DNA from: Rotaria magnacalcarata
Taxonomy: Eukaryota
Direction of reading: 5' to 3'
Assembly (NCBI GenBank): GCA_965140935.1
Contig: CBCSLL010000157.1
Span: 105,559 to 161,415 of the forward strand
Length of the DNA stretch: 55,857 nt
Notes under the pieces: model-generated
Databases searched by the model: none
The model's input: only the letters and a program-made list of their open reading frames with translations
What the model was told of the DNA's origin: nothing
Position numbers and translations under genes: made by a program
Shown: positions 852 to 43,362 of the stretch, one piece after another
Layout of the letters: each line of letters starts with the position of its first letter
Position numbering within the stretch: the first letter of the stretch is position 1

Positions 852-3295
852 TCAAGTTGTTTTCCATTTCATACGGACTACATGTCTTTCTGATCTTTTA
901 CGCGCTGGGTCATCTTCTGGAAAAAGTTTTGCCCGAATTTTCCATGCTTTCTCAAAATATTCTAAAGCAAGTTGATTCTCGTCCATCGCTTCATATTTAT
1001 GTCCTGCACTACTGAAACTTATTGCAAGATCAGAATGATCAAAGGGCAATACTCGTTCACGCATTTTTAACGCTTGCAAACGCAGTTCTAGGGCTTTCAC
1101 TTTTTCTCCTTTCACACTGAGAACGGTAGAGATACTATTAAGAGTAGTAGCAATTGCTGGATGATCCGAAGGAAAGCACTTTTTTTTCATAGCTAGTGCC
1201 AGATGATAATGATTGAAGGCTTTTTCATGTTGAATTTTAGTCTGATAGACATCAGCAATATTATGAAGAACATTAGCGATATTAGAATGATCTTCGGGTA
1301 AACATGCTTCATAAATTTGCAAAAGACGAAAGAAAAAAATTGAATGCTTTTTCACTATCTTTGGTCATTAGATGAACGATGCCGATTGAATTTACAGTTT
1401 CACCAATGTGAACATGAATTTTAGGTAAACAAACTCGCTTGGTATTCAATGCTTGTTCATAATAATGGAGTGCTTCACGATACTTGCGTAGTCCTCGATA
1501 GCACGATCCAATATTATGCAGGCAATGTGCCATTTCGAGTTGACGCAAACCATTTAACTCTTCCAATATTTGTTTTGCTCTATTACAGTACTTAAGCGCT
1601 TCTTCATATTGACCTTGCTCAACTAAAACATGACTCATGTTAAGTAATATATTTGTGGATTCTCGAAGCAAAGATGGATGAGATTTTCTCATCAGTTGAT
1701 AGGCTACATCAAAAGGATGCATAGCTTGCTCATATTCAGCATTGGTCTGACATACTAGGCCAAGTTGATTATGGATTTATGCAAGATTTTCATTTCCAGG
1801 ATCTCTTAATAATTGTTGAAAAGAAGTTTGAGCTGCCTGATAGTGACCCATCCGAGTCAATAGTGATCCAAATCATATTGATACACTATTTCCTTGCATT
1901 TCACTCTTTGTTTCTTCAATATACTGTCTAGCTATTTCTTGTCCTTCACCTGTTACACTTAATGAAATTTTCCACACATCATCTTCTTCAGTAACCGATT
2001 GAACTTTAAAAACGGTACCCAAGTCGAATAATACTTCTTGCTCGTCAGGAAAATTACTGAAATTTGTTATATCGGCAAAGACAGAAGAATTTTCCTCTTC
2101 GTTTCAACATTCAATCTCAAATAGTACTGGAACAGAGTCAGATTGATTTTTATCCTTTATAGCAAAATTAATCGCTATGGAACGTGAACGACTTGTGGAT
2201 AAATAACCATTAATGGAAATGAGTTTACCCTCATTGGATCGAAATTCTTCAAGTTCAACCAATGTTAATCGTACACCACGATAGACAGTTGTGAATATTT
2301 CATTATCAGTCTCCACCATCATTTTATTGTGTTCCCGTGCCAAGGTCAACGACAGATCCGCAATAAAGAAGCGAAAAGTATACAGCTGTTGAATATCTTC
2401 TGTACGCAGTGCTTTATTTAACATTTTATAGACAAAAGTCTCTCGTGTATACCACTGAATGCAATCTTCACTTGTATAAGAATTTTCAAATTCATCAATT
2501 GATTTTAATGCCCTTTCATTCCCTTGATGATAATTGCGACATGCATGAATCATTTGTTTTTGGCTTTAGGATTTGAAGGAAGCGAAACAATAACATTGTT
2601 ACATAATTGAAACCTATGAATACAAAGAACAGTATATAAAATCCAATGAAAATAACTATTTTATCAGGATTTTTTAATTGTCTATCCGTTGTATTAAGAG
2701 GTTCTACAAACTCTTTTATTTCACAAAGCTGCTAATGATGAGAGTCCTTTATTTTACGCAAAGTTTATTGCTTTAAAATTGAATTTTGATAAATCGCGAA
2801 AAAGATTCTTACCAAAGAAATTCTGCTGCGCGTTCTGATACATTGATCGAAATTTTCTGTTTTTGATTATAGAAACTGAATGTTTCCACTTGTTTATTGA
2901 GTAAACGAAGTTTTTTTTACAAAGGTTTGCGTCTAGCTCTATTCTATCAGTGAATATGCCAGATATCTTGGAAAATCTTTCCATCAAGTCTAAATTTTCT
3001 TCACGCCATGTACAATATATGAATACTGATTCGAGTTGTTTTAAATCAATAATAGGAGGTAACAAAATTGTACCCATATTTCTGAAGTACTCAAAAAACT
3101 TTTTTCGCCAGTGACTGATTTAATGTATGAAATGCATTCTTCTATGTTATTGTAAACGAGAACATAATCATTGATCTCACGTAAAGTCTTCATTCTATCT
3201 GCCATCGAATTCATCTCACCAATTTTTGAATCAAACCAAATCAGGGTAATATTCTCCTTATTCGTTTCTGATGATCGATCACATAGTGGTGCCAT
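852..3295 (-). pseudogene. Disrupted gene with an N-terminal domain of unknown function, then a mono-ADP-ribosyltransferase (R-S-EXE type) domain, then kinesin-light-chain-like TPR repeats. It carries in-frame stops and frameshifts.
   Basis: ORFs 3041..3295, 2754..3077, 2104..2553, 1309..1722 and 852..1355 are collinear on the minus strand. The ART motifs are visible in ORF 2104..2553: VYRG (Arg), YLSTS (STS) and FEIEC (EXE). TPR-like 34-aa repeats are in the last two ORFs. The single frame running 2553->1309 contains in-frame stops at 2104-2106 (TGA), 1873-1875 (TGA) and 1777-1779 (TAA). There are frame changes near 3050-3077 and at the A-run 1331-1338. Confidence 0.6.
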
Positions 3296-5113
3296 TTTAT
3301 TTCTTATTCACACAACAATCGTATTTCGACGTGTCACACTTTAACAAATGTCTCTATTGGTGCAAAAACAACATTTGTCTTGTTATTTACACGATTGTTT
3401 AATTTTCTTCCGTCGTCGAGGGAGACATGAAACATATTTGGAAAAAACTAACAGGTGACTGATTTCTTTTTTCGTTCTGTATTCTTTCGAATTCTTTTCA
3501 TGTCGATGGCAGTGCAGATTAATAATAAAGCGTCAGTCTACTTTTAAACAATGCGATAGACAGAATAGTAGAGGGAAAAAGTATAAAATCATAGCCAGTG
3601 AAGATTGAAACGCTATCGATGCTAGACATCTCGAGATGAATTTTGGATCAAAGAAAGGAGACGATATAAATCAGCTGAGTTTTACATGGGATCATCTTTC
3701 ATACGACGGACTAGAGTTCAACTTAGAGGCTGAACTAGTCACTTTGTTTTGTTCTTTGTCCTATCCATTCTCGTTCTCATACGTGTTGTAGTACTACAGT
3801 TCTATAAATACTTGAAACAGTTTATCATATCAAAGTATTCACACGAGATAACCAATTTAGCATTCGTTCATTACTAAGTTTAAACGAAATTATTGACTCA
3901 GGTATTTTATTCTCATGCAGTTTTTAACTCAGTCAGAATGTATATTTACAATTGTTAAAAATAATTAGTTTCTTATTTATGCTATTGGTGTGAATTATCA
4001 ACGTAATAAATGATTGATACTTATTGCGGCATGACCATGAGCTCATGATTTCATACGAGAAGCAATTTATAGATTTAAAAAATAATTACCACTGTATCAA
4101 CAGTATAGCAGTATATTGTTATCAATAGATATTACTATCTGATGTTAGCATCGTATGACTTTCTCACTAATCAATTAAATAATTAACTAGGCAGCTACGC
4201 CATAGGTTATAGTAAAATAATGAAACAGAGTGGACACGAATAATGTCGCCAATAATAAACAGATAGAATCCGAAGGTAATGACTTCGCCACTGGATCCTG
4301 CTAATTTCTAGTAGAAATCTGCAGGAAATACACGTCGTTTTCGGGCGAAAATGCTAGATTCCAAGTGCCTAACATTTTCTGACCGTACCTCATTGATCTA
4401 GGATAGACTTAAAATGAAAGACGACACTAATTGAGGTGTGCATTGTCAGATTCGTTTTTTCTTGGTTATACGGTATTCGCTGAATTTTCTCAAAACGTAG
4501 TTCGATAGTATTGAGAAACTCTTCTCGAAGCTTATGCTATTTTTTGATACATGTCGTCTCTAACGATCTATTGAAGTCAAGATGATTTCGGTTAGTTTCA
4601 TGAAATCATGCTACAAACTTTTCGGAAAAATTCAATTGCGTTGATAATATTTTTGATACCTATGCTGAAAGTCTAGTTTTAAATTCATGAAAAACTATAT
4701 TAATTTCTTTATGTTTTCGATAATTTCACTGAATTCCTTCTTCCAAATTCTGTAGAAACTATTTTCAAAGTTTGATGATGTGTTTAAGTGTTATTGTGCA
4801 TTTAATCAAAGAACACTGAGAACTATCAAAAAACAAAACTTGGCAAATTTCGAAGAACACTTTCTGTCAAACTTTCTATGTTTATCATTTTTTTTTAACT
4901 AGATATTGACTCTAACAAGTATTTCTTCTGACTGAAAGTAACAATCTTATATTGGAATAGTCTTGCTCGAATAAGTAATTATCATGATGTTTTCATTTTC
5001 GAAGTAGTTCATGCAATTCTAGTTTAATGATAGAAATATGCAACAAAAATAACATATGATTTAAAGCATAAAGATTCATCTATCAGCTAAAATAAGTCAG
5101 ATTAACTGTTGTG

Positions 5114-5929
5114 CTAATTTCTATAAGTCAGTTCTGCCAATACCGGCAGATGATCTGAGGGATAATACTTATTATTGGAATCAGCTAAATGTGCATGTCG
5201 TAACACTTCGAAGCGTGATGGTGTAATGAAAATGTAATCTATTCGATCATCTATACCATATTTTACGTCAAAGGTAGACCAAGTGCCATCGGGACCAGAA
5301 TGAGCAGATGCTGTCGAAAGTTTTGCATCTGCGAAGTTTATGCTATTTGTAATTGTATGATAAGCATCTGATTCAGGTTCTGAATTTAAGTCACCAGTCA
5401 AAATTGCACGTGCTGAGTATCCAACTATCTGCTCTATACGAGTTAAGATAAGTTTAGCACTTTCTCGACGAGCTATTAGACCTTTGTGATCAAAATGAGT
5501 ATTGAAATAAAACATTTCTTTGTTCATCAGTCGATCTCTGAGTTTGACCCAGCTGCATATACGTGGCAAAGCTGCATCCCATCCTTTAGTGCCAGGTTTA
5601 TCTGGTGTTTCTGACAACCAAAAAGTACCTTTCTCATTGAGTTCAAAACGATCATGCCGATAAAATATGGCACAGCACTCGCCATTATCTTTCCCATCGT
5701 TTCGACCAACAGCATAAGAACCGTAATTCGATAATCCAGATTTTAAATCTGTCATCTGTTTAGGAAGACATTCTTGAACACCAAGAATATCAGGTAAATA
5801 ATGCTGAATAAGATTAATAACACGGTCTTTACGAAAATACCATTGATTTCGACCATCAATAATAGTATCCAAACGAATATTATAAGTCATTACACGAAAC
5901 GGCCATGTATGTTGCTCGAATGACATCAT
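5114..5929 (-). CDS. Endonuclease/exonuclease/phosphatase (EEP) family hydrolase. Single exon, 271 aa.
   Basis: Uninterrupted ORF. EEP motifs are present: MTYNIR, LGVQEC, FNTHFDH, GDLNS and SDHLPV (C-terminal SDHxPV). There is no intron although neighbouring genes are intron-rich. TAG stop. Confidence 0.8.
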   Translation of the reverse strand: MMSFEQHTWPFRVMTYNIRLDTIIDGRNQWYFRKDRVINLIQHYLPDILGVQECLPKQMTDLKSGLSNYGSYAVGRNDGKDNGECCAIFYRHDRFELNEKGTFWLSETPDKPGTKGWDAALPRICSWVKLRDRLMNKEMFYFNTHFDHKGLIARRESAKLILTRIEQIVGYSARAILTGDLNSEPESDAYHTITNSINFADAKLSTASAHSGPDGTWSTFDVKYGIDDRIDYIFITPSRFEVLRHAHLADSNNKYYPSDHLPVLAELTYRN

Positions 5930-7791
5930 CTGAGAAAATATAATATGAATGAAAAGAATTTCTTATTTAAATCGTAAATAACGACCAATGATATGTTAAA
6001 TTATTTAGTTTAAGAAGACAAAATTGAGTTTCGAATAAAAAATGAAAATAGAAACAAATACAGTAACCCCTTCAATAAAACTTTGTTGATTTATCTATTT
6101 TGAGTAAGTTAGTCACACAAGAAGAGTCTCTATTAGTCGAATATAACAGAGTACTTCATAGAAAACCAAAATTTACAAAGCGACAGTTTTCATTAAGATC
6201 TATCGCCATCTATATTTTAAAAATTATATAGCCGTAGTATAATTATTGTCATTCAGTCAGACGATATCTATATTAGGATCAAAGTGTTTTTTAATACATC
6301 AGAGTAATGATCGAAATTTATGGAATTTAAATTCTTTCATAAAAAAAATAATGTCCTATTCATCATTTTTCGAATAAAATTAATTTTACTATATCAGCGA
6401 GTTAACTTTAGCATGTTAGCCTCGTGTTCATATTACATTTCATGTTCATTGAATTGTAGTAAGTCAGAAACGACAAGATTCCCATTATACATTAATAAGA
6501 GTCTGTTCAGCAAGCAAAAATTGAATCAAATCTTTTAGTCATATGTGAGAATTTTGTGTCGATTTCTAATCAACTATGAATAGTAAAGTCTAAAAACAGT
6601 GCCCAGACATTAGGTAAGTGATAAGATATATATATAACAAGGAATTTATGATGTGCGTGAACACTTGCATATCCTAGTTTTCAAATACGGAAGGTATTGA
6701 ATTTTCATTTTTCGTTTTCGGATTTTTTCACCAAACAAAATGAGTTACAGTCTGAAAGCAGCGAAAATCTGTTAAAACTAGGTGTAAATATCTCACACTC
6801 TTCCGTGAACACATTTTCGTCTTTGCATATGTATTTAAGTTTGAATAGGTTTAATAAAATATTTAAAAAATTAGTTCTTAGCGTCTGAACAACTAATGTA
6901 GTTTGAATGTAGCATTGATCATCTCATTTAGGAAGATAGTGCTGATAAATATAATCTGCGCACTATCATATTAGTTAACATGTTCGAAAATTTACTTCGA
7001 AAGAAGCATTCATATCTAGTTTGACTTCAATAAAAGCATACAACAATCAGTAATTAAAATATGAAAAGAAACTGGAGAAAAAAGTGCATCTATGCACATA
7101 TTCCCTATATCAGAAATTCCTATTTTTAGTTTTAACTCAGTTTTTCGACACATAAATGCCTAAGATATTCGAAGATAGGTTTTACTTCTACGCTCGATCA
7201 ACGATTTCGCCGAAAAGTATACTATACATAAATTATTATAGATTCGAGCAGCAGAAATTTCGCAACCTTGCTTCAATTGACATCACTGCGGATGAGATGT
7301 CTGAGTAGGATCTACAAAAGTCAATAAATACCAATCTATTCAATTTTCTCTCATGGTGTACTTTTAATCTTTTTTTCATAATGATACGAAATTGTTAGCT
7401 CTCACCACTGAATCGAAATATTCATACTCGTTTAGATCTCATAGATTCAGTGCATGTTAGAGATTTAGCTATTTTACACTGCAATGATAAATTTTTACGT
7501 CTTTTCTAGAATTCCCTATGATTATCTTTAAGATTCTACAAAGAAATGATGCTGAGCTATTATTATTATCTTTGGTTCGTATAAAATTCCTGATGTTTTT
7601 CGTACGAAAGTAGCGTTTTACCGCTGATTTCATCACATCTCAAGCAATTATTTACTAGACAACGTCATACGAGTAAATATCCAAACTTGAGTTTATGAGA
7701 TATGGTCATAGATTATACCGCGCTCTTTGGTATGCTAGGAGTTACAATGGGTTTGTCCTACTAATATTTTTAGCATGTTTAGGAAATCTTT

Positions 7792-8320
7792 TTGTGTACT
7801 CAAAAAAAAATGAGTACACTATAGAATCGGTCAGTGTGTCCGTCCGGCCGGCCGTTTACACGATAACTCCGGAAAGGCTGATCAGATTGTCATGAAATTT
7901 TGTAGACAGCATTATCTCATCTATGTCTCAGTCGAGTTCGAAGATGAGAAGGATCCGTCAAGAAATGGCTGAGTTATCGAAAAAATTGTCATTTTTGACT
8001 ATACCATCCCTGAGGGGGAGTACAGGGATTTTTCAAAACAAAAATTTCTCTCAGAATTATCCACAACATATATAAATCGACTCAGTTTTTAACGCTGATT
8101 CCGAATCTGATACTAGTTTTGAACAAAATCGTAGCTTTCTAACGAAACATCGCCTGAAAAAGGTCTCAAAATGCACAAAAACTGAATTCAGAAACCAAAT
8201 TGCCTAGTTTCTCATGATAATTTTGGTGTTCAGACATTCTAGAATGACTCACATATCCCATGCACTTTTTGCAGTACACATAACTCTCGGATGAAATCCG
8301 AAGTTTCCACATTTATTTAT
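7792..8320 (-). repeat. Copy 2 (inverted, full length) of the roughly 535-bp interspersed repeat family.
   Basis: It is the reverse complement of 31082-31617 along its whole length. The hairpin end lies at 7792-7816 and the other terminus at 8307-8320 (ccacatttatttat). Confidence 0.75.
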
Positions 8321-8761
8321 TGTTAGATTTATGACGCACCTGCCAGTTAGTCCTTTTAGGTTACAATGCGAAAATATCTGGAAAACATATGAACCATTAA
8401 ACTCACCATTGCTTTTCTCCTCCTTGCTTTCGCGCACAGAAGATCTTCGAAAAAAATAAAAAATCTTCTCGTATGCTGCTTATTACTATTTTTTTGATCA
8501 ACCATCCAGGAAATTCATAAAAAGCCCATATCAAGAACTGGGACACAGAAGTTTCGTATACTTTGGAAGAAATAAAGTAGGCACCAATGCACCATCATAA
8601 ATGAAGTCTTTCTAATAGGATTAGGGTACTATGTAACGGTGCTATATTCTTACTCAAGTAACAAGCTTCCAATTCTGTATTTAGTACCCTCATAGAATTT
8701 TATTCAAATTAATAAACTTGAAAACAGTTCTGTCAAAATTTTACAATAGCGGTTCGTCAAT

Positions 8762-10019
<1,258 letters not shown>

Positions 10020-10087
10020 TTTTGTTGTATGCGATTTCTTTGTTGACGAAGCGAAGTTGAAAATAAAATAAGAGTGTAATAGCTACA

Positions 10088-10098
10088 TTTTTATATAT
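10088..10098 (-). promoter_or_regulatory. Candidate TATA box (tatataaaa on the minus strand), roughly 70 nt upstream of the cathepsin ATG.
   Basis: Sequence motif only. Position is relative to the start codon at 10017-10019. Confidence 0.25.
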
Positions 10099-11224: not shown

Positions 11225-13100
<1,876 letters not shown>

Positions 13101-16517: not shown

Positions 16518-16711
16518 GTCGTTTTGATGATGATGGAGTTCATGTAGAGCAATTAAACTTTAAATTTAAAATTAGTCAAAATATTAGTTTGAAAGAAATG
16601 ATTCAGCAAAACCATCTACTATCAGTATTAAAACTATCATTGAGAAAATTAAGACTCAACATTAGATGATGGCATAAATTTACATGAAGCACATGAAAAT
16701 GATCAAATCAG

Positions 16712-29615: not shown

Positions 29616-30623
29616 GTGGAAGAACGCAAAAAATATTTCAATAGGAACGAAACTTTGTACGAGTCTATAACAAAACAAATATGTTATAATCAATTTACTG
29701 CTCTATACCTACGAAGGTTAATAGATTTCGATAGTTGTGTCTTAAACATAACAGCGGTTGATGAAGTCTTATTATTGGAGTGGATTTTTTCATCAAATAA
29801 ACACAATTTTATGATGAACATTACTGTCGGTATTTATCCACATTTCTCATATATTCCTTCAATTTATGGCGCTGTATTCTTTTCTGTACTGGTTTATCTT
29901 TCGCTGGTTGTTTGGTTTATTGAATCGTTACTATTTCATTGTCGGCCATGTGTAATAGGTGTAATAGCTATTTTAATATTTTTTTCTCATCTCCTCACTT
30001 TCATTGAACCCATCCTACGTTCAACAGTGACAACTGAGGAGAGAAACGCAAAACCATTGTATAAAGTTACGGCATCACACATCAGTACAAGTTCTCAACT
30101 TTTGCTGGCGTCTAATTTTCAATGTTTAGTAGAAATGCGCGCAAAATGAAAAGTCGCCCAATCGATCTAGTTGCAGCTATTATTGTACCTATAGATTTGA
30201 TTGGAGCTGGTGTCTTATTCGGCATTGCAAAAATACTCATTTATTCTTGAACGTCTTCAACTTAGTTTTCACCTACGTCAAATTTCAGTTGACATTATTA
30301 TATTATATGTTTTGCTCTTCTTTGTTTTTTGGCATTTCAATGTAATTAATGTTCGTCGTCGCTTCATTGAGCCACTATTAATCATTACGAATGTTTACCT
30401 TTTAATTGACGCCATTTATGTATTCGCTACTTCGATACCATCTCTTTTCTCTCCACTCACTGAAAACGAATTTTGGTTCCATGTAGGCCATTCGTTACCA
30501 TATTTTATTGCGCTTTTTACATGGACACTCTTGTATTGGCGAGAATCGCTAATGGCTTCTGACAATATTAATGAAAATAGTGAGAACGACAAGGAAATCC
30601 TATTATCAACTTGTACATCATGA
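29616..30623 (+). CDS. Hypothetical multi-pass membrane protein with an internal two-fold repeat. It is split into two ORFs (29616..30149 and 30201..30623) by a TGA at 30147-30149. This could be one interrupted gene, two genes, or a gene with an unrecognised intron.
   Basis: Both halves are rich in hydrophobic helices. They share motifs: RRLIDF...FIEPILR versus RRRFIEPLLII. The intervening 50 bp also reads as a hydrophobic segment in frame with the second ORF. No family was recognised. Confidence 0.35.
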
Positions 30624-31081
30624 TTGGTAGTTAATCTTTTTTGATGCTTTGACATATATCATTATGGATTTGTGCTCGTGTAATCTTATCAAGTTTTTGG
30701 AATCTAACATATTTCCAGGTGTCAATTCCAAGCGCATAAATCTCAAAGTGAATCTCATTGTATTAGAGTAGGTATTTTTGCAATATTAACTGCGAAGAAC
30801 TTTGCTTTCTCTTTCATATCTACGTATTTGTATGAAAAAAAAGCAAACTAGAACAAAATGTCTAAATAAAATTAATATCAGAACAAAATTAATTTAAACT
30901 ATTTTCCATTTTGGTAACTAAATCTCTGTCACATATGAAAAAATATAGTTTGTAAATGAATTACATCAAGTTCGGTAGCATATAATTAAAAAATTAATTT
31001 CTCACTTGGCAATATCAGCCTAGTTTACAAGGAAACTATAATACATTTCTTCTTCATGTTACTATTAAATCACTCTGAACT

Positions 31082-31617
31082 ATAAATAAATGTGGAAACT
31101 TCGGATTTCATCCGAGAGTTATGTGTAATTAGTGCAAAAAGTACATGGGACATATGAGTCATTCTAGAATGTCTGAACACCAAAATTATCATGAGCAACT
31201 AGGCACGCTGGCTTCTGGATGCAGTTTTTGTGCATTTTGAGACCGTTTTCAGGCGATGTTTCGTTAGAAAGCTACGATTTAGTTCAAAACTAGTATCAGA
31301 TTCGGAATCAGCGTTAAAAACTGAGTCGATTTATATATGTTGTGGATAATTCTGAGAAAAAATAGGTTTTTTTGAAAAATCCCTGTACTCCCTCCCCCTC
31401 AGGGATGGTCTGGTCAATAATGACAATTTTTTCGATAACTCAGCCATTTCTTGACGAATCCTTCTCATCTTCGAACTAGACTGAGACATTGATGAAGCTG
31501 AACTGTATAGAAACTTTCATCACGATCTGACTCTCCTTTCGAAAGTTGTCGCGTAAACGGCCGGCCGGCCGAACATACTGACCGATTCTAGAGTGTACTC
31601 ACTTTTTGAGTACACAA
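31082..31617 (+). repeat. Copy 3 (full length, 536 bp) of the interspersed repeat family. It ends in the hairpin gagtgtactcactttttgagtacacaa.
   Basis: It aligns to 1-223 over its 3' part and to the reverse complement of 7792-8320 over its full length. Confidence 0.75.
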
Positions 31618-31948
31618 AAAACGAGCTCAACAACGTACAGTACGATAAATATATAAGCTGATTTTAACGAAAGAGAATAATTTCAAATATAACAAAAAGA
31701 GAATTCCCTACTACTTTCTCTTGCAAAATTGGTCAATGTCATTCCATTTTTTCATTATTCTTATAATAGTTATCAATGAAAAAAACGAAATATACAAGCA
31801 AGTGAATAGTAATAATCTCTTTAGGCAAATATGAATTGTTTAAAAGCCTTGCTTTTCATAGCGAACGAGCAAATAGACATTAAATATATTGCTATTATTT
31901 TTTGTGAATTTATTGAAATAGTAAAGACAATAACATTCAAGTACACAG

Positions 31949-32630
31949 TTACAGAACAATAGCATCAGCTTCAATCTCGATTCGCATGTCAGGATGAACA
32001 AAAGCGTTGACTTGAACAAGTGTTGCAGGTACTCGAATACCATAAGAATGAAAAGTTTCTTTGAATGCTCGGCAAACATCAGCTTGATCAGCAATATTAA
32101 CACTACAGAAAGAAAAAACAAGTTTAATTTATTGGAGTACATTTGCCGAATACGAACACAAACATTCGCACACGAACAATATCTGTGATTTGAGCTCCCA
32201 TTCTTAGCAATGCATTAGTAATGCGTTCAAAGATGATAACTGTTTGATGGTATGCACTTTCAGGCTAAAAAATACTATATCCATATTTTTATGAATCACT
32301 GTAATTAAGTTTACATGAAGAACCCCTCCTGTGACTGTGATATCACTAGCTGTCGTACCAGCTACGATGACAAAGGGTCCACGTCGAACAGCTCGTGTGT
32401 GGCCACATATTTCTTCCCATGGATTATTAGTACGTAATTCAAGACGACCTGGTAAGGTTTCAACAACAATGCCAGCACTTGATCGGTTAGGTTCTGTTTC
32501 AGCAGCATGAAAAGGCAACGTCTAAGGTAGAATAGTATTATTCAGAGAATTTAACAATAATTAATTTAACAGATTTTTATTCAATCATTCTTACCGTGAC
32601 GGATTCAAGTTGTTTCTGTTCTTCTGTCAT
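31949..32630 (-). CDS. RidA/YjgF/L-PSP-family (reactive-intermediate deaminase-like) protein of about 164 aa in 4 exons. Approximate exons: 32595-32630, 32315-32521, 32158-32264 and 31949-32102.
   Basis: Spliced translation is MTEEQKQLESVT | TLPFHAAETEPNRSSAGIVVETLPGRLELRTNNPWEEICGHTRAVRRGPFVIVAGTTASDITVTGGVLH | PESAYHQTVIIFERITNALLRMGAQITDIVRVRMFV | (V)NIADQADVCRAFKETFHSYGIRVPATLVQVNAFVHPDMRIEIEADAIVL. The family pattern is recognisable. The third intron donor (GTTCGT) is non-consensus, so that junction is uncertain. Confidence 0.65.
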
Positions 32631-35600
32631 TCTATTATTCGCAATATGTACTATTAGACGATTCTATATGAAGTTGTATCTACCTGTTATTCGTTATCTG
32701 TCTCCTATTATTTTGTTAAATGGACTTATATTGTGTAGTTTGCGATAACAAATTGAAATAAATAGAATAGTTCCTAAATATTGATAGGCCTCTTTAAAAC
32801 AAGCCAGTTAGGATTATAACCTTTAAGAAATAATTGCTTATCAATCTATGTTAAATGATCGCCTGAGAAATTACTTCAGCTGTTTTTTTTTTCGAATTTA
32901 TAGTTCCTTTTCGTTTTGGCATCTATCCATTATAAACATCGTACGAAATACAAAATTGACTGAGACATAATGTCGTTTCCCATACTCATTCTTTTCATTT
33001 ACTAACTGTGATAAAGAGCAACGTTGTCTACGAGAGAATCGCTAATTGATCAACTTATGGTAGGTTTTTTTAATGTGTGTCCGCATCAAAGAAAATAAAC
33101 CATGAAAAATTCATTGAACTACTGATACTAACTGGTACTCTAGCTGTTGTGTGGCTAGTAAACGTTGAATATCCATGTCATGACTTTATTACATGATTAC
33201 TTATAGAAATCAGATCGCATGAATATATTCCACTGCTACCTTAAATGAGCATGCTAATCATTTCAATCGAAATCTATGATTTTTCTTCATCAATGAAACC
33301 TAAACATTACGCTTTTATCATTCACCAAAATCAACTAGCTCAAGCAAAAACAAATTCTCAAATATTGTACCTCACTACTGAATAAATATGTAGGCATACA
33401 CATTGTGAACAAAAAAGTCTGCTTTTTGCCAAATAAATATTTTTACTTTGCTACATATTTGGAGTTTAGTTAATTTCGGAAACTATTTTATCTATGCCAG
33501 ATGTCATTGACGTTGATCATACCATTTCCTTATTCCAGCATCTTGTTTTGTATTGACTACTCATTTATACTTCAATGAACTTCAGCTTCATTCGAATGTA
33601 ATTATATATACATATAAATGGAACTATTAATCTATGATATTCTATCAATAGTAATTAGTTCGAACAATTTTTGATTATTGCAAGTATTTTTTTGTGATGA
33701 AAATTCAATATTTATGCTGTTCTTTTTTTCATAGTAATTATATACAATTGATATTGAGAACATAAAAATTCACATCGTTGCTAAATAATGAAGAAAATAT
33801 AAAAGACTAAATATAAAACTGGAAGTTGAATTATGATATTTCTTTTATTATAGAGGCACGTCTAAAGCAAGAACACTATGAACAATTCATTTGTCTTAGT
33901 CAAATGCAAAAATATAACTATCTCAAAAATATTTTAAATACATGATCATGATGATAATAATAGTGTTAAGAATGGAGATTATACTGTATCAATTAGTAAT
34001 TATTATAAAAATTTTAAAGTTCAATTAATGATAATGGTGTTCACTCAACAGATAAGTACATATAATAGACAAAGAATATATTATACGTATTAGAATAAGA
34101 ATTCATTCGATAAAGGCAATAATTTAACGAGCAATTATCTAATTTTTTTATAAGACACAGAAAATGTTAAAATACTTTTCGAGGTAGTTTTCAAAAGTAA
34201 TCATTGGTTTATCTAACAATTTCCAATATTAATCAATACGACGAAAGCAAATTTTACTGTTTATATCAGCTTGTATGAGTATGATAACAATGAACAGTTT
34301 AAAAAATGCATAGGAGTCTTAAGTTGCTCAATTCATTAACATTTTTAAATATTAGTTAAGTGAGCATATATGTATGGTATTGTTTTGTATCAATGATAAT
34401 AGTAAATTTAGAAACAAGTGTGACGATAAACTTAAAACTATCATATTCGTCTAAGAAAGTAAACTATCTTTATTTTTTTGAAATTCTCTAGTCTATCACA
34501 TTAAAGAATCAAAGATATAACCTTGATGAAGTTGACTTATTATTGTGTTAATGAAGAGTAAATATCATATCATTAAATAGTTTTCAATATTTTAGCAGCT
34601 AACACAAACTAAGCTATGCAAGCCAATTTACGTTTCATTGAAATTTCATGTGTGTGTATAGTAAAGTCATTTGTCAAATCTATTGCTTTTATGCGTTGTC
34701 CAATTCTTTCAGCTGCCTGAAAACATTTTTAGTATTACTTCAGTGATGACTAAAGATTTGGCGACTTCAATATTATACTCAATCTTTTAAAAGAATCTCT
34801 CTCAAATGTATATTAAAGAATTCGGTTAATCCTATCATATCAATCTTTTGCTTCGTTGAATTTACTTAATGTACACTTGCAGTTGTCAACATCGCTATAC
34901 ATATACAGTGGTATTTGAGCAATATGGGAACATTTTACTTGCTTTTGATTTCTACAAGGTCTTGTTTAGACATTTACCAGTCTGATCATATATTTGCTCC
35001 CTCACAGAGAATTACTAAAATATAGTCGAAGTATTCAGAAATCACTAACGGATTGTATGTCATAAGCTCAGGAATTTGAGCATCGGAAACTCATTGTTAC
35101 CGTTGCTTATGTGTACTAGTTTAGAATATTCTTCATTATCAGATAAATAAGTTGGTCAAAATATATTTTGGATCTGACTGCATTTGATAAAATATTGCGT
35201 ATGGGTATAATCAAAATTTATAACTGATGTAAATGTGTTCATTTGAGTTTTGAATGATTTTTGTATGATTGCGTAGTCAAGCATTGTCTAGAATTTTTTC
35301 TAATATTTTCATTCAAAGTAGAATAATACATAGATTTCTTTCAAAACAAAATGAAACTAGTTAATTATAGTTATTAGTGATTTTTACTGCTTAAAAAATA
35401 TGATTTGTATCGAAGAAAAAAACAGTTCCTTTCGTTCTAATAACTGTCAGATATTTGTAACATAGATTTTATGAAAAGGACGATTATTTTTATAAAAAAA
35501 AATCAGGGACAAAATCGAAAATGAATTGCACATAAGTGTGAAAAAGAAATATTCAAAGAAAAAAGAAAAAGAAAGAACAGATTTTAGTGAGAATAATAAA

Positions 35601-36712
35601 TAAAAGAACCGAGAATATTTCACCTAGGACAAGTTTATTCTGTTTTTAGTAGGGATTTTGTTCTGTTACTGCTAATTTTATTTCCAATGAATCCATCGAA
35701 TCAAATGAATTTGAATTATTTTTCTCTAGAGTATTTATTCTTTTCTTAGAGTCCAGTTTCTAACTTTTAGAAAAATACGATATCAATCAAGTTAGTTTTC
35801 AATTAAAAGCGATTGTATATCTGACAACAAAAGAAACTGAGTTTGATTTGACGACAATCTTCTTTAGAACTAGAATTGAAGAGTGCGTATCTATGTTTAA
35901 TGTTAGATAATTACTACTTGCATGAAAGAGAAAATCGAATAAAATATGGATTACTTTAGTTTAAAAATCGATATTTTTTTTAATAAGGCTTATCAATCGA
36001 AATTTAGACTAGTCAAACTAAATTTTTGTTCGACTTATTTCCGAAAATTTAGCCTGATGTATTTTCATTGTATGATCGGAATGTTTAAATCAAGCGTATT
36101 TCAAAGATATAATTTGATTTAAAAATGAGGCTGATGCTTTTGATATTCCCAGTCCCAGGTATTCTTATATAACACAAAGGATAAATATACATCTAAATAA
36201 GTTCGTTGCTAAACGTAAAAAATACTTTTATATGATTGCATTTTTACTAAAATAAGACGTCTATCCACAAATCTTGGAAATCAAAGAAATAGTCTCCTAA
36301 AACTAATGATTATTATTGAATCGTTTTTCAATAGATTATTGCGATTAATTAAAAGTGAAATAAAACATTAAGGAGAAAATTGAAAGTCAATATTCTCACA
36401 GAGGATAAGGCCAAATATTATTCTTTTTTTCTGTTATCCATATAGTTGTATGTGTTCTGAATCCGTTTCTTAGGTATTATTTATCACTTTGTCTAGGTTT
36501 CGAATAACGATGTTTGTTTCATAATATATTTTCTTGGAATCAAAAATCGAGACGATCGTTTTAGAAGCTGCATAAAATATTCTATAATTTTGTTTTTGCT
36601 TTGGTTGAAATAAAATACATTTTTATTATTTATAGAAAGAAAAAAAAGCGAGGTCTGCGCAACGACGAAAAATGCATACTTGACTATTTTTTATTTCTAC
36701 ACACGGAGTAAT

Positions 36713-39009
36713 ATGACTGGTATAAACGAAAAAATAATTGATTCAATTCATCAGATAGAAAATCTTCTATTCCATGGTGATATACTTAATGAAACTTCGT
36801 CTTAACCGTTAATCAATCTTCGTAATCAATTAAAACAGGTCGATGACGGATATGACCTTAAGAAAAAGGATGAAATCGAGAACCTTATTCCTATTCTTGA
36901 CTATTTTGAAATAAACTCTTTTCGTCATTTTATCAAATTATATTCTTCTGTAATTCCGTCTACTCTCTTAACAGTTATATTCGATATAGTTCGCCTTAAA
37001 ATATATAATAATCTAACAGTCTATCCGGCATTAACCGATTATTATTTTAATTTATCACTTACCTATTTAATTGCTGATTCAATAATTGATTATCTTACTG
37101 ATACAAAGAATATTCTACCAAATTTAGACGAAGAATTTCTTCATTTATTCTCTTCTATTTGTTCGCGATCGATTTATGTTAAGGCAAAGATTTCCTATTC
37201 AATTTATGCTTCACATAAAAATATTCCAACATTTTTTCAATTGAATAATTCAACCGAACGACTATTAAAAGCGTTGATAACATATTTAAACAATTATTTT
37301 TTAAATAATCATCAAAAATATCAAACTTATATATCGATTTTCAAATGGCTTATTAATATGGCAGATGTCTACGGATTTGTTCCTTATTTAGTTAATACTG
37401 GTTATCCATAGGATATTTCACAATGGATGTCAATTGAAAAAATTGAAGTCAAAGATATTTCTCTGGAATTATAGTCTCTAGTTGTAACACTATTACATAA
37501 TCTAGTTCGACATTGGATGAGTGTGGAAGCTCTTAATAAATTAGAAATGATCGATACTCTCAAGGAGTGGAGAGAAAATTATATGTCTGTAATATCAATT
37601 ACTGATTATGACGAAGATGATCAAGATATTCTTCTTGCTTATTATCTTGTTTATTAAGCCTTGTTGGAACCAAAGGAATTAAAAAAAGAAAGTATCTCCA
37701 ATATTCGAAAAGTCCTTGATTATATTCTTGAGCAAACAGTAAAAGCATTTGATTCTATTGATCTTACTTCTGGTTCATATAATGTTTGTGAATATTTAGA
37801 TGGGCTTGCTAAATTGGTTGTTAATAATACTTTTCTTATTTATATTATTTCATATGAACATATTTATGAATTAGTTACTGAAAAATTTCTCTTATTTAAT
37901 ACTATATATGAGTCAACAGCACTTGATACAATTATTTGCGCATCACTGCATACAATATTTTGGTCAATTAGTTTTCTACCTGAATACAGTGTGAAATTGG
38001 AATCCAATGCTAAATTTCTGTCTTCAATTGAACAAAGAATAAAAACTCAAACAATGGATGAGCATGCTGCAGTCATGCGACGAGCAGCTAACGGAATTCT
38101 TTTTAATCTTGGTAGTACACACACAGATAGACAATCGATCGAAAATAATCATAATGATGAAGATAATAGATTCGTGTTGGTTCTGCAACATGGGTTCGTT
38201 TTGGAGATAAGAAAAATGATGAAGATGTTATGGAAATTCTTCTAGGATTGATTAATGTACTAGATAAAAGTAAAAAGAATGATGAAAAATTTACATCATC
38301 GAATAAATCACATTTCAATATTCAATCAGAAATCAATGCAATTAACATGATAAATACACGAACTGTAGAAACGATATCGTCTCCATCTTCTAGACCAATT
38401 ATAGAAAGTCCCGATATACAATCACAGTCAGAAACAACTGTATCGAACGTTACTCCTACTTCTTCAATTGAACAATAGACTTGCGAAGAAATACAACAAT
38501 AATGGCTTCATTTACCGCCATCTACTCTTCCATTCTCATCTGGTCGAGCTTTAATCGCATATATGAACTTATTATCACATGACAATGCACAATATGACGA
38601 ATATGAACATCGAATTCGTCATAATGGTATAAGTCGAGAACAATTTTCTAATTTAATATCATCATTTGCATCTGTTCGTCCGTTAAACAAAATCCGAACC
38701 ACTACACCAAATGAATTCTTTGATGAATGGACACGTGAAGAAGTAAAATATTGGTTTCAACAAAATAATTTATCTGATTATTTATTAAATACGTTGGATT
38801 TTGTTGATGGATCTCAACTTATTACGTATGGAAAGTTAATTATTATAGATTCACCAGTACATATTGATCAAGAATATGATCGATTAAGGAATCATATTGG
38901 CAGTGATTCTTTTCATCTCAATGAATATGCTCGACTGTTGAGTGGTCTGAAGAAAATTGTCAACCAATCAAAATCAAAAGAGGAATCAGTCTCCTGTAAT
39001 ATTCTCTAA
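36713..39009 (+). pseudogene. Decayed gene of about 2.3 kb. It encodes a long alpha-helical protein ending in a SAM (sterile alpha motif) domain. It is interrupted by at least 4 in-frame stops and 2 frame changes.
   Basis: A continuous codon-like frame runs from ATG 36713. Stops fall at 36803-36805 (TAA), about 37409 (TAG), about 37472 (TAG) and about 37656 (TAA). The frame switches at about 38230 and 38480-38560. The C-terminal ORF 38563..39009 contains a SAM-like segment, TREEVKYWFQQNNLSDYLLNTLDFVDGSQL. Confidence 0.5.
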
Positions 39010-40247
39010 TGTTGATTAAGGAGATTATGTCTCTAATTTTATCCAATGATTACTGTAAATACTCTGTATCATTAATGAATAAATTATCTTTCCATTGTTT
39101 AACTATTTATCTCGTTTATATTAAAAGTAATTCGTTTTCCTCACATCTTTTCGCACGTGATACTACAATTCTATTGCAAGCAACTTCAAATGTTGTATTG
39201 CATCATCAAAAGCTCATATTTAATTATATAGGTTCGCTTTATTTTTCAACTTGACAAAATTTTGTACAACCAGCTTCTGATACCGCTACTCAAAATAATT
39301 CTTTTGAGTATATTACAAGCCTATTTTTATAATAAAAGAGATCTAGTGATATTTTTCTTTCATATACACAATAGGAAGATAAACAACTCATTGTCAGCAA
39401 TTTCATCTACAAAAAAAAAAGAAATTTCAAACTGTACATAGATTAAAATTCACTGAGCTCATGTCAAGTTATGCACGAGATGTTAAAGATATTCGTCACC
39501 TATCAAGTAGTGATCTAATTCATTTGGTTGTAATTTTTAAATGTTTTTTAAAGTATATTACGAATGTTTTGTAACAGAACATTATTCAAAGTTTAAAAAG
39601 AAAAACACCAAAATGAACTAGCCAAAAGAATAATAGTTTTCAAAGAATTATTTTAACTTCATATACGTAGATAATTAACAATTCTCAAAGTATTTAGAAC
39701 TATTCTTGCCGTACGAGATGCACTAATGAATCAGTGTGTTTAATCAAGAAATTAATAGTGAGTGTTATCATTTTTTTAATGTGTAGATTTATCTAATGTA
39801 TACATGATAGCAATTATTTTATCTCTCTCTTTCTCTCTTAAAATTATCTTCTAGTAATCTAAAATAAAAATGCTATTTTTAAAGATTCAATTACTCTGAT
39901 TTTTTCGTTACAAATATGAAGATTAACACTCTCTAAAAGAATTTGATCTGTTCCAAAAATTTAATTGTAGTTTGATTAGCAGTTAGGTAAAGTTGTACAG
40001 ATGATGCTTTTCTATTGTAAAGAATAATTTATTTACAATATATTTCTTGATTTTTATGTGTTGTTCAATATTCAGACAATATTCTAACAGACGACAAGAT
40101 AATTGAAATCTATTGAAAGTACAAGAAGAAGAATCAGTAGCTATATGGTATATCAGAAGACATTTGTTATCTACGGATACAAAGAAGCAGTTTACTGTCT
40201 TTTTATTCATGCTTTTGAATATGATAATAACTAACACTTGTTTACTG

Positions 40248-43200
40248 TTAGTCGACTACATGACGATCTGTCAGATCACCAATCAAACCTTGACCAAATC
40301 CGATAAGATTGATGGGATTTCTGCCATCAGTAACAAGCATTGATTGTAGACCAAGAGCTTGCAAAAGTTTGACTTGAGTCTCAGGACCTGACATAGCGAT
40401 ACTTTGAATAGTCGAAGCGCCAATTGATTCAACTTGTAATTTGAATTTTTCAGTTTCTATTTGAGACAACGCTGCTTTTTTTCTTATCTCTAATTCATTC
40501 TGTTCGCGTAGAAATTTGATTTCATTTTCATGTGCTAATTTCAAACGAGTCGATTCGGCTTCAGCTTCGATTGTAATTGTTTTAGCTTTGAGACAAGCTA
40601 AAATTTATAGAAAAAACAGAATGATTTTTCATAATTGAGACTCAACAATTCTATACCTAGTTCAACGGCTGCTATGCCTTCAATACGTTTCGATTCAGCA
40701 CGACTAAAAGCTTCTGCTTTGCTTTGACCAGCCGATTCGACCACCGCTGATTGAGCTTTTAATTCAAGTAGTTGTTATCGAATCTCTTCCGCTTCTGCTT
40801 CATCTTTGATACGCTGTCTTTCTAAAACTCCTTTCGCTTCTTGTTCACGACGTGAAGCTTCGTGCTGAGCAGCAGCTTCTTGCGAATTTGTTGTTATCTA
40901 AAATAGAAAACGTTGTTCGTATTTGAATCAGAACAAAAATTGAATGTCATACTTCAATAGCAAGTTGCACACTTTTCTGTAATGCATCACGTGTATGTTG
41001 ATCGACAGGTTCAACACTTTGAATATCGATCGACGTAATGGCAAGGTTATTTTGTGGAAAAATTATTCGATCACATACACATTGATGTGCGTCAAGACCG
41101 AATACAGATTCACGAATGATGTGTGCGGAATTCTTGTGAAAATTATCAAAGTGAGTACCAGCTACTGCACCACGAATACGCGAAGCGATTGCTTTGCATG
41201 TATCTCCAACAAAATCGGGTACAGAAAAAAGCTTTGCCACTTCTTTCTCATCGTTTATATCTTTCACTTCAAAGTGCCAATCTAGGAAATACAGAATAAT
41301 CAATGATACATAGATATATATTTGTGTGCATTTGCTATGCTTTGACTTACTATAGGCAAGTTTAATCGAGAGACGAGCATGATCGGCTGTCTCAATGACG
41401 ATGATATCAGTGAAAAAATTCGGGCCGAGCAGTAAACAAAGGGAGTTTACTTGATTTGGTTTTTTGGGTATACCACCACTTAAAGAGATCATTGTAAAAT
41501 GTTCATCAGGTTCAAGCAACACAAGTTCTGGACCGAAGACAATACGCGTTTTTTTCACTTTGTAATCATAGATTTGTACGGCTGCATTATGTGGAACACG
41601 ATAAGTGATCAATCGCCATTTGTCACGTTTAATCGCATTTGATTTCGAACTATTCAATTGACTATCAGAAGTGGCAAGCATTGTTGACACATTGCTCATC
41701 GAAGTTGAGTCACGCATCGCAGAATAACGATCAGTCAATGGATCACGCGTTAGTAAATATTCGATCTTTTCGGGTAATTCTTTTTTCCAAAGTTCTTCAT
41801 CTTCTGTTAACATATAGGTTACACCAATGATTGATTGAACTCGACCAGTTTTAATATTACGAACATATATGCCTTCGTTTTCATCTAGTGGAATTGCTTT
41901 TGGTCGAGTAATAACTTCCACTTGAGTAGGTGGAATATATTCACTAAGTGTTCAAATAAAAACATCGATTTATTGAAAATAGCATTTAATAAAAATAAAA
42001 TTAACATACATAGGTCCTCGAACAATCCATCGATCACCTGCGACACGTACTTTTTTTGCGTGTTCGTCATTGAATGTTTCATTGCATTTAATGGTAATAC
42101 CTTCGTCTTCACCCAAAACAAACACATTTTGAATACCATTCAAAAGTTTTTCACCTGGTTGAAGAAAGAAAGATGATTCGCCACAGATCATTTTCTACGC
42201 GAAGAAAAAATACATATTATTTTATAGTTATTTAGTTCATAAAGAAAAGTATTTACTTTTTGCCCGAGTTGTGATTTACCATTAATCGATGGATCCATAA
42301 TAATGCAATATTCTCGTGAATTGAGTATGATTGGATCGACATCAGCAATGAGTTCTTCGTATACATTGAGGATATGTGACTCGGCATCAATATGTGTCAC
42401 AAGCCATTCTTCTCCATTCAAACGCATTTTACCGAAATCATCAGTAAAAGTTTTAAGAGCCCTAAGATGAAGTGCTTTCTTATCGGTTAATGCATAGGCT
42501 TTGTGAATCAATACAACTGTTTCCTATCGAATCAAAATAGTAGATCGGTAACAAGAAAAGCAAGAGACGAGACAATTTACATAGGCAAGCGGTAAGTAAG
42601 CGCCGGCCTTTTTGATTAACCACTCTTCTCCTGTGACACGAAGTTGGTTTGATCGATCAATAAGTTCTTTTTTTGCACGAAGTCGAATCGCTTGATTTGG
42701 ACCAATAATAGTTGCTTGAATTTGTTCTTCCACATTGATTTCTTTTCGAGGAATATAAGTAGCTGGACCTTCGAACATCCATTCATCACCGGCTCTTCGT
42801 CGTTCTTTATGAGAATCCTCAAAATCAAGTACAGCTTTTAATCGCAGTGCTGCATTAGCTGGAACAATAGTAATTGCTGTAACAGGCTATACATACGAGT
42901 TTATAATAGCAAATAGTGTATTTGAAAATTTTAAACCTGACGAAGAATCTCTCCTGGATAAAGAGGAAATGGAGTTTGATCAGGTCGTGATAGATGAATC
43001 TCGAAATCGGCATGAGCCAATTTCACTTGACCATTCTGGTCAAATTCAACTTCACCATCTTTGCTGCGTACCACTGGTGATTCGACAATACAATAATGCA
43101 ACAGGCTACAACCATGAAAGCAATATTTTACTTTTATTTTCTCATTTTTAAAATAGTCAGTCACTCACGGAATGATGATCATTTTCTCTGGACCCATCGT

Positions 43201-43362
43201 AACTGTTTCATTGTCTTGCTTAATAAAAGTCTTCGGTCCGACTTCAAGACGTGTAACATTGGTGTTCTGATCTAATACATGTATATAATGACAAGGTGGG
43301 ATTCGATAAACAGGTTCTGCGGTATCTTTTTGGCTAGTCGTTTCTGATGAAACTAAGCTCAT
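40248..43362 (-). CDS. MVP: Major vault protein (MVP), 9 exons, about 868 codons. Approximate exons: 43169-43362, 42937-43105, 42581-42886, 42257-42523, 42010-42194, 41351-41943, 40953-41281, 40657-40897 and 40248-40598. Exon 8 contains an in-frame TAA at 40775-40777.
   Basis: Strong collinear similarity to vertebrate MVP from N to C terminus. Examples are [188 protein letters not shown] and the C-terminal ...[17 protein letters not shown]. Introns are 50-69 bp. The TAA aligns to a Lys codon of human MVP (RKELLELEA). Confidence 0.85.

Follow-up and report, generated by a model that had tools for sequence, protein, structure and literature searches.

Putative pseudogenes of bdelloid rotifers were described by Nowell et al., and non-genic regions of the Rotaria magnacalcarata genome with similarity to proteins have been attributed to decay that followed either genome doubling or recent duplication (bioRxiv 10.1101/226720). 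The loci considered here lie in a 55,857-nt segment of this asexual species (the window; Table 1), and one of them, an SDR relic with 42% identity to its intact counterpart, fits the class of Nowell et al. The TIR-domain gene, TPR-ART and MVP-B differ from that class in being young (90% identical to intact orthologues or carrying a single stop) and in having no obvious link to tetraploidy. All of these loci resemble unitary, or non-processed, pseudogenes in that they keep their ancestral position, synteny and introns and have been disabled by nonsense changes, frameshifts or deletions where a sister species has an intact orthologue, with core lesions fixed and further ones segregating. They depart from the usual picture in their host, a degenerate-tetraploid asexual animal with collapsed homologues, and in that several of them are found within 56 kb. 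No account of these particular pseudogenes turned up in a search of the literature.

Our analyses support the assignment of the window loci as non-processed pseudogenes that arose by lineage-specific loss of dispensable genes and are interleaved with constrained genes, a reading to which we give a probability of roughly 0.85. Three features expected of such pseudogenes (an intact syntenic orthologue in a relative, disabling lesions and the reproducibility of those lesions) were found, while signs of relaxed selection on the affected lineage differ between the genes. The three genes in which a preliminary description had read premature stops all lie where it placed them, and the stops reflect genuine gene decay. 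At least four pseudogenes of different ages are present in the window, and probably five. Lesions were scored against the intact orthologues of R. socialis, which have ~90% amino-acid identity to the window pseudogenes (the split between the two species corresponds to a dS of ~0.1), and their presence across assemblies was scored by exact-context matching. The same core damage recurs in 10-13 independent assemblies of R. magnacalcarata, whose matching loci share 99.5-99.98% identity with the window.

Table 1. Features of the window, with positions counted from its first nucleotide; dN/dS values are relative to R. socialis.
Feature	Position	Strand	Remarks
TPR-ART (NAD:arginine ADP-ribosyltransferase + TPR) pseudogene	852-3295	minus	aligned codon by codon with the intact R. 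socialis gene (P0140/L027)
EEP (Exo_endo_phos), intact	5114-5929	minus	271 aa, single exon; dN/dS 0.25
Cathepsin (Peptidase_C1), intact	8762-10019	minus	338 aa, 4 introns; unique valid splice model in both species; dN/dS 0.13
Carboxylesterase, intact	11225-13100	minus	valid 530-aa model in window; gene calls in all assemblies
Gene of unknown function	15747-18801		435 aa; models range 434-452 aa between assemblies
USP/UCH gene, intact	22499-25087	plus	862-aa single ORF
Transmembrane-like ORF, candidate fifth decayed locus	29613-30623	plus	alignment to R. socialis L025 3410-4444
RidA (Ribonuc_L-PSP), intact	31949-32630	minus	167 aa; dN/dS 0.22
TIR-domain gene pseudogene	36713-39009	plus	alignment to intact R. 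socialis P0121
Segment of 6.6 kb with MVP-B and SDR relic	39148-45766		absent from syntenic R. socialis locus (blastn of L025 vs window)
MVP-B, divergent major vault protein duplicate	40248-43362	minus	9 exons; in-frame TAA at 40775-40777
SDR (adh_short) pseudogene relic	45201-45644	plus	7 in-frame stops in 148 codons; only C-terminal half detectable
HADH (3HCDH), intact	46518-47534	plus	338 aa; dN/dS 0.16
TGF-beta gene, intact	48036-50419	minus	valid 382-aa model in both species; dN/dS ~0.30, approximate because enumeration of splice models is ambiguous

The R. socialis orthologue of TPR-ART (P0140) is intact, with 747 aa encoded in two exons and the same neighbours as in the window. Relative to P0140, the window copy has exactly the three stops previously claimed for it (R331, CGA>TGA at 2106; L408, TTA>TGA at 1875; Y440, TAT>TAA at 1779), and the accompanying frameshifts number four (-1 at 3072, +2 at 2918, -1 at 2561 and +1 at 1320). 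A TAA at 2811 was considered as a fourth stop and rejected, as it is part of the donor (GTAAGA) of a conserved intron of ~200 nt located at about 2614-2812. The lesions are common to 10 loci of other assemblies, those at 3072 and 2918 (c75, c127) being polymorphic, and an ORF for a 149-aa TPR-ART fragment is present on 13 R. magnacalcarata contigs. The pairwise dN/dS of 0.25 relative to R. socialis is not higher than that of the intact neighbours (0.13-0.30), and unique amino-acid changes are in excess on the R. magnacalcarata side (13:4, p=0.049).

The second gene had been described as a SAM-domain gene with at least four stops and frameshifts. Its R. socialis orthologue (P0121) is a single-exon gene of 866 aa with the same neighbours as in the window; 10 assemblies of R. 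socialis have it intact, and none of R. magnacalcarata does. The stops were borne out, as there are five nonsense substitutions (36803, 37409, 37472, 37655 and 38476) and a sixth in-frame stop, a TAA made by a 3-bp insertion at ~38498. In place of several frameshifts there is one 310-bp out-of-frame deletion (38169/38170), which takes out the TIR domain (Pfam TIR_2, residues 490-609 of P0121). The SAM domain was not supported, since TIR_2 is the only Pfam match in P0121, with no SAM or ARM domain detected by Pfam (for SAM, none at E<=0.1). Five of the lesions are fixed, whereas Q31* and W692* vary from one assembly to another. The dN/dS of the pseudogene relative to R. socialis is 0.46, compared to 0.13-0.25 for the four best-modelled neighbours and ~0.30 for the TGF-beta gene; its unique amino-acid changes (19:11 on the R. 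magnacalcarata side) show no significant excess. Like SARM1, the ARM-SAM-SAM-TIR NADase, P0121 has a TIR domain together with an N-terminal region that is long and helical, and also has a C-terminal region, the part that had been taken for SAM. Unlike in SARM1, whose TIR domain is C-terminal, that of P0121 lies in the middle of the protein between these two regions, and the window copy is without any TIR domain. We rejected membership of the SARM1 family, as Pfam finds neither ARM repeats nor tandem SAM domains in P0121 and its TIR domain is not C-terminal.

MVP-B has the full domain set of a major vault protein (Vault repeats, shoulder and cap-helix) and is 61-65% identical to MVPs of molluscs, cnidarians and other invertebrates. 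We built its gene model by hand; the 877 codons are spread over 9 exons, and the 8 introns between them are all GT..AG and 50-69 nt long. The single stop reported earlier is a CAA>TAA change at codon 722, in the cap-helix region, where the syntenic orthologue has CAA, and it is present in 10 of 10 assemblies. In keeping with the species assignment of the window, its MVP has 97-99% identity to R. magnacalcarata proteins, with private differences at codons 507 and 516 relative to 10 other assemblies. The gene is intact in Rotaria sp. Silwood2, where it lies beside HADH and TGF-beta; with a dN/dS of 0.17 against that species, MVP-B evidently was under constraint over the long term. Its unique amino-acid changes are in excess in R. 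magnacalcarata (65:34, p=0.002). Had the gene evolved neutrally since the split, a count of just one stop would have a probability of about 0.01-0.07, and so we consider its loss to be recent. Elsewhere in the genome there is an intact paralogue, MVP-A (P0027), with 72-74% identity to MVP-B. MVP-A is conserved among bdelloids, whereas MVP-B is divergent, has an accelerated amino-acid rate and the codon-722 stop, and is deleted in R. socialis.

Two further decayed loci, the SDR relic and the transmembrane-like ORF, had been overlooked in the first reading of the window. The relic, aligned by tblastn to a syntenic intact SDR of 287 aa in Rotaria sp. Silwood2 (E=9e-27), is much older than the other pseudogenes of the window. 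Silwood2 retains the order HADH-SDR-MVP and the order at the syntenic locus of R. socialis is RidA-TIR-HADH-TGFb; this comparison of gene orders indicates that R. socialis deleted MVP-B and the SDR relic independently. The transmembrane-like ORF has frameshifts of -1 (30141) and -2 (30229) with a TAA (30147) in between, and both frameshifts are present in 6 of 6 assemblies. Its dN/dS relative to R. socialis is 0.66. Neither this ORF nor any of 10 intergenic ORFs of the window had a Pfam match.

Locally poor consensus quality had been offered as a source of the stops, and some details are consistent with stops and frameshifts that are assembly or consensus errors: two of the four TPR-ART frameshifts sit in A-runs, and the two private MVP differences are confined to the window. 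The core lesions, the 310-bp deletion and the nonsense substitutions among them, are nonetheless the same in all R. magnacalcarata assemblies with coverage of the site in question (between 3 and 13 contigs for each lesion, a Logan read-set assembly included), which excludes consensus error as their source, and the annotators of every assembly arrived at fragmented or stop-skipping models. We therefore find an origin in error scarcely credible. A variant genetic code, already dismissed in the preliminary description, is likewise excluded. TAA, TAG and TGA all occur as lesions and each also serves as a terminator, the stops replace six different residues of the orthologues (Q, Y, W, S, R and L), and they are accompanied by frameshifts and the 310-bp deletion. 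The suggestion of a degenerating haplotype, with an intact allele on a homologous chromosome that the assemblies have collapsed or lack, draws on the fact that Rotaria assemblies collapse homologues (bioRxiv 10.1101/226720), because of which a rare intact allele could be hidden. Haplotype groups do exist, as there are three (B, A1 and A2) 0.1-0.5% apart, two of which are combined as a mosaic in assembly L031. All three carry the same core lesions, however, and none of the assemblies, haplotype groups or orthologue protein clusters yielded an intact copy from R. magnacalcarata, with the proviso that homologues are collapsed in these assemblies. The clusters hold 10 intact proteins from R. socialis against none from R. 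magnacalcarata, and a heterozygote for the 310-bp indel should yield alternative contigs in at least some assemblies. Decay of one haplotype is thus very unlikely.

Five decayed loci within 56 kb, along with gene loss in the orthologous R. socialis region, are what might be expected of a transposon-rich, low-recombination region where relaxed selection lets all genes decay, and lineage-specific TEs have indeed inserted at 26296-27347 and at 31078-31620, with a palindrome present upstream of MVP. The MITE density to which the preliminary description appealed is modest, amounting to a single TIR element of 1 kb, a single repeat family of ~540 bp and that palindrome, and no repeat lies inside any of the disrupted coding sequences. 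As that description had it, the neighbours read cleanly: EEP, cathepsin, carboxylesterase, USP, RidA, HADH and TGF-beta all have complete models. Neighbours interleaved with the pseudogenes have dN/dS values indicative of purifying selection (0.13-0.30 relative to R. socialis), and therefore selection is not relaxed region-wide, making such a regional cause decidedly improbable. An ohnologous copy was a further proposal, in which the window is the copy being lost by fractionation after the ancient bdelloid tetraploidy, with intact genes retained in an ohnologous block. It has been suggested that some pseudogenes of bdelloids stem from decay after their genome doubled (bioRxiv 10.1101/226720), and R. 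magnacalcarata has intact paralogues of both MVP-B (MVP-A, 72%) and the TIR gene (TIR-B, P0264/P0266, 58%). An ohnologous relationship was not demonstrated, as the paralogues are without flank synteny: no genes are shared with the window in the 10-kb flanks of the MVP paralogues (P0030 and P0032; L023, L024) and of the TIR paralogue (TIR-B, P0124; L039), and a tblastn search of the paralogue loci with the TIR gene gave no match. In addition, TPR-ART has no Rotaria paralogue closer than ~40%, yet has 1:1 orthologues in Adineta, most neighbours are kept intact, and the losses postdate the R. socialis split, far later than ohnologue divergence (Ks ~0.7; bioRxiv 10.1101/226720). Fractionation of ohnologues is accordingly an unlikely explanation. 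Lastly, MVP-B might still be functional if its stop were bypassed, either by read-through or by removal of a GT..AG segment of 57 nt (40758-40814) as an intron. The window copy has only this one lesion, the stretch after the stop retains a dN/dS of 0.24 relative to Silwood2, and the segment is in frame, of a size typical of introns and skipped in all public gene models. The stop lies in the context TAA-CAA-CTA, which fits stop-CAR-YYA, a leaky context that permits read-through. Against this, the putative intron ends in AAG while 8 of 8 real introns end in TAG, the segment is coding in orthologues, and skipping it costs 19 residues and adds a proline. Furthermore, the intron-2 donor is lost (GT>CT at 42936) in 5 of 10 other assemblies, which also carry 5 non-synonymous versus 3 synonymous SNPs, and R. 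socialis has deleted the gene. We consider a functional MVP-B to be most improbable.

Under lineage-specific loss of dispensable genes, TPR-ART and the TIR gene would have lost their function in the R. magnacalcarata lineage after the split from R. socialis and drifted neutrally since, each collecting seven disabling lesions. Of random substitutions in the coding sequences of these two genes, ~5-6% yield stops, predicting about 3-5 stops where 3 and 5 are observed, and the nonsense count therefore fits neutrality. MVP-B would have been inactivated much later, by one C>T that is predicted to truncate the protein in the cap-helix region, and new lesions have kept accumulating in individual haplotype groups. 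The lost genes were presumably dispensable, being members of multi-copy or immune-type families or having intact paralogues, and loss-of-function mutations could thus have been fixed by drift, to which loss of heterozygosity or gene conversion probably contributed, the lineage being asexual. Some residual function may be retained by the truncated products (721-aa MVP-B, the 149-aa TPR-ART fragment and a 148-aa C-terminal ORF of the TIR gene). More speculatively, the five-locus cluster could have been left by one event of gene conversion or loss of heterozygosity that rendered homozygous a haplotype with sheltered loss-of-function alleles. Alternatively, R. magnacalcarata could have shed, in a directed manner, immune-type effectors that consume NAD (the TIR NADase-like gene and the ADP-ribosyltransferase) along with a spare vault gene. 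In either case, read-through of the stop or intronization of the 57 nt that contain it might rescue MVP-B in part; we think these scenarios quite unlikely.

These loci represent ordinary lineage-specific gene loss and reveal no new mechanism, and their relevance is mainly to annotation and to studies of asexual genome evolution. For the latter they show how genes decay in an asexual animal as a small, clean time series, consisting of one old relic, two intermediate pseudogenes and one very young one, in which disabling mutations still segregate among clonal lineages and MVP-B was lost separately in the sister species. In public R. magnacalcarata annotations the loci are given as fragmentary or stop-skipping "unnamed protein products", and the public MVP models (853-858 aa) include the 57-nt segment as an invented intron.

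The window is AT-rich (G+C about 30%), with short introns (GT..AG, 50-70 nt). It is nuclear DNA of the asexual, degenerate-tetraploid R. magnacalcarata, as its spliced major vault protein (MVP) is 97-99% identical to R. magnacalcarata proteins, the next-best matches being to other bdelloid rotifers, and loci of other R. magnacalcarata assemblies match it at 99.5-99.98% identity. Genes were mapped using gene calls on matching public contigs and our own splice models.

Features of the window, with the basis of each model and dN/dS relative to R. socialis
Feature	Position	Strand	Basis	dN/dS
~540-bp repeat (partial copy)	1-227			
TPR-ART pseudogene	852-3295	-	codon alignment to P0140	0.25
EEP	5114-5929	-	gene calls/splice models	0.25
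~540-bp repeat	7789-8324			
Cathepsin	8762-10019	-	gene calls/splice models	0.13
Carboxylesterase	11225-13100	-	gene calls/splice models	
435-aa predicted gene, function unassigned	15747-18801	-	gene calls	
USP	22499-25087	+	gene calls/splice models	
1052-bp element	26296-27347			
Transmembrane-like ORF	29613-30623	+	alignment to R. socialis	
~540-bp repeat	31078-31620			
RidA	31949-32630	-	gene calls/splice models	0.22
TIR gene pseudogene	36713-39009	+	codon alignment to P0121	0.46
MVP	43362-40248	-	hand-built model	
165-bp palindrome	43661-43825			
SDR relic	45201-45644	+	homology to Silwood2 SDR	
HADH	46518-47534	+	gene calls/splice models	0.16
TGF-beta	50419-48036	-	gene calls/splice models	~0.30 (approximate model)

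The R. socialis ortholog of the TPR-ART gene (P0140) is intact, 747 aa long, 90% identical and syntenic beside EEP and cathepsin. Its 1:1 orthologs in Adineta have 57-58% identity and the remaining family members at most about 40%. Relative to P0140, the three stops plus frameshifts of the preliminary description proved to be the nonsense changes R331 (CGA>TGA), L408 (TTA>TGA) and Y440 (TAT>TAA) and four frameshifts (-1 at codon 75, window 3072; +2 at codon 127, 2918; -1 at codon 179, 2561; +1 at codon 593, 1320). Five lesions are identical in all ten loci examined, the codon-75 deletion is missing in two of the ten, and the run of A at codon 127 has seven bases in three loci and eight in the rest. 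A 149-aa ORF representing an ART fragment is on record for 13 R. magnacalcarata contigs. A TAA at window 2811 was rejected as a lesion, being merely the intron donor according to the structure of P0140 (two exons, 201-nt intron).

Homologs of the gene previously labeled as SAM are bdelloid "TIR domain-containing proteins" of 860-870 aa that form a small family (19 matches). The SAM label was not confirmed, as Pfam detected only TIR_2 (residues 490-609), and no SAM domain, in P0121, the R. socialis ortholog (one exon, 866 codons, 90% identity), which, like the window gene, is flanked by RidA and HADH. Codon-level alignment to P0121 revealed five nonsense changes (Q31 CAA>TAA, Y233 TAT>TAG, W254 TGG>TAG, S315 TCA>TAA and W692 TGG>TAG), a 3-bp insertion creating a TAA (~38498) and a 310-bp out-of-frame deletion of codons 486-589, by which the TIR domain has been lost. 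The earlier count of at least four stops stands; the reported frameshifts reduce to the single deletion. Y233*, W254*, S315*, the deletion and the insertion are present in 10/10 other assemblies, Q31* is missing in three of the ten, and W692* occurs in the window and only two of them. The ortholog cluster has ten intact proteins from R. socialis and none from R. magnacalcarata, in which an intact paralog (P0264, P0266) has 58% identity.

Our hand-built MVP model has 877 codons in nine exons, and all eight introns are GT..AG and end in TAG. A single TAA interrupts its reading frame at codon 722 (window 40775-40777), in the cap-helix region past the shoulder domain (Pfam). The syntenic ortholog from Rotaria sp. 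Silwood2 (P0002, 876 aa) is intact and has CAA at this codon, so the lesion is one C>T change. All public R. magnacalcarata MVP models (715, 853 and 858 aa) dodge the TAA by excising a 57-nt GT..AG stretch, giving "ERQ|P|QSAVVE"; this stretch is coding in orthologs and ends in AAG, versus TAG in the eight real introns. All ten of the other R. magnacalcarata assemblies share the TAA. In five of these (L030, L031, L033, L035 and L038) the intron-2 donor GT is mutated to CT (window 42936), a second, polymorphic disabling lesion that accounts for the 853-aa gene models. The stop context, TAA-CAA-CTA (window 40769-40777, minus strand), fits stop-CAR-YYA, a motif that promotes leaky termination in plants and yeast; the host here is a rotifer. 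The palindrome, with 44-nt arms that are 89% complementary, lies ~300 bp upstream of the start codon and may be a MITE in the MVP promoter.

The window MVP falls in a divergent clade, MVP-B, with 72-74% identity to the conserved MVP-A, which is intact in R. magnacalcarata (P0027) and has identities of 87% between Adineta and Rotaria and 98% between R. magnacalcarata and R. socialis. Unique amino-acid changes are in excess in MVP-B (65:34, p=0.002). Its dN/dS of 0.17 relative to Silwood2 (dS 0.68) shows that it was under long-term constraint, and one nonsense change, versus the 4-7 expected under neutrality from the split with R. socialis onward (P ~0.01-0.07), indicates that its inactivation is recent. 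R. magnacalcarata haplotypes differ by five non-synonymous and three synonymous MVP coding SNPs. In Silwood2 (L014-L016, 15320-18935) a second MVP gene, inverted, adjoins MVP-B at the position that in R. magnacalcarata and R. socialis is occupied by the TIR gene. Vault genes form a dynamic family in Rotaria.

Further decay was found nearby. Silwood2 has an intact 287-aa SDR between HADH and MVP; the window retains its C-terminal half (adh_short, 42% identity, 7 in-frame stops in 148 codons), the N-terminal half being undetectable in a search of the window with the Silwood2 protein, and this relic is an old pseudogene. The transmembrane-like ORF, which had no Pfam match, is probably a fifth decaying gene based on alignment to R. 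socialis: -1 (30141) and -2 (30229) frameshifts, common to 6/6 assemblies, flank a stop, the copy in R. socialis carries a separate stop farther upstream, and dN/dS is 0.66. R. socialis DNA is 91-95% identical to the window. It wholly lacks window 39148-45766 (6.6 kb, MVP-B plus the SDR relic) at the syntenic locus, where HADH directly follows the TIR gene, and so has lost both by deletion; for MVP-B this is an independent loss. The TIR and TPR-ART genes of R. magnacalcarata were lost by point lesions, versus the deletion losses in R. socialis. The 1052-bp element carries terminal inverted repeats of 16 nt (CAGAGGTGTGCACAGG / CCTGCGGACACCTCTG); R. socialis lacks exactly this stretch, so it is a lineage-specific insertion of a DNA transposon or MITE. 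Copies of the ~540-bp repeat family (82-89% identity) had no detectable terminal inverted repeats, and R. socialis lacks the one at 31078-31620. Neither these elements nor the palindrome lie inside pseudogene coding sequence.

The preliminary description offered relaxed selection across the region as one explanation. However, dN/dS is 0.13-0.30 for the neighboring genes. The four best-modeled neighbors and both pseudogenes have dS of 0.07-0.12, and the approximate TGF-beta model gives 0.05. Unique amino-acid changes, polarized with outgroup proteins, were 19:11 (R. magnacalcarata:R. socialis) for TIR and 13:4 for ART, and the nonsense fractions (5/119 and 3/97 differences, respectively) agree with the ~5-6% of random substitutions that yield stops in these coding sequences. 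Based on these values, selection appears to have been relaxed gene by gene rather than across the region.

Locally poor consensus quality had been offered as an alternative, but the core lesions recur across other assemblies, indicating that the lesions are genuine. They comprise TAA, TAG and TGA alongside frameshifts and the 310-bp deletion, which, in agreement with the earlier view, excludes a variant genetic code. A degenerating haplotype is not favored either, as no intact allele was seen in the R. magnacalcarata haplotype groups B, A1 and A2, although Rotaria assemblies collapse homologs (bioRxiv 10.1101/226720) and might hide a rare one. The suggestion of an ohnologous copy is in keeping with the intact paralogs of MVP and the TIR gene; however, the flanks of the paralog loci examined had no collinearity with the window, and the gene losses (dS ~0.1) are far younger than bdelloid tetraploidy (ohnolog Ks ~0.7), so ohnolog fractionation can be no more than a distant contributor in the background. 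Lineage-specific pseudogenization is the simplest account: dispensable genes would have been inactivated in a single lineage, followed by neutral decay that would still be under way in individual clonal lineages. More speculatively, the clustering of five loci in 56 kb could have arisen if a haplotype carrying many sheltered null alleles became fixed through loss of heterozygosity in one event.

Further differences among assemblies were also observed. L031 (GCA_965120345.2) is an A1/A2 mosaic over window 33563-44004 (27 variable sites, four-gamete pattern), representing either gene conversion or recombination, or the consensus of a collapsed heterozygote. The 435-aa gene has large introns and a product of 434, 435 or 452 aa depending on the assembly; upstream of it, L021 (GCA_905261645.1, 1-1620) has a Glyco_hydro_3 gene instead of the carboxylesterase, reflecting either a structural difference or an assembly mis-join. 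Finally, a ~720-bp insertion in L002 and L003 (2835-3555; window 49801/49802), absent from the window and L001, is a structural polymorphism of the large TGF-beta intron.
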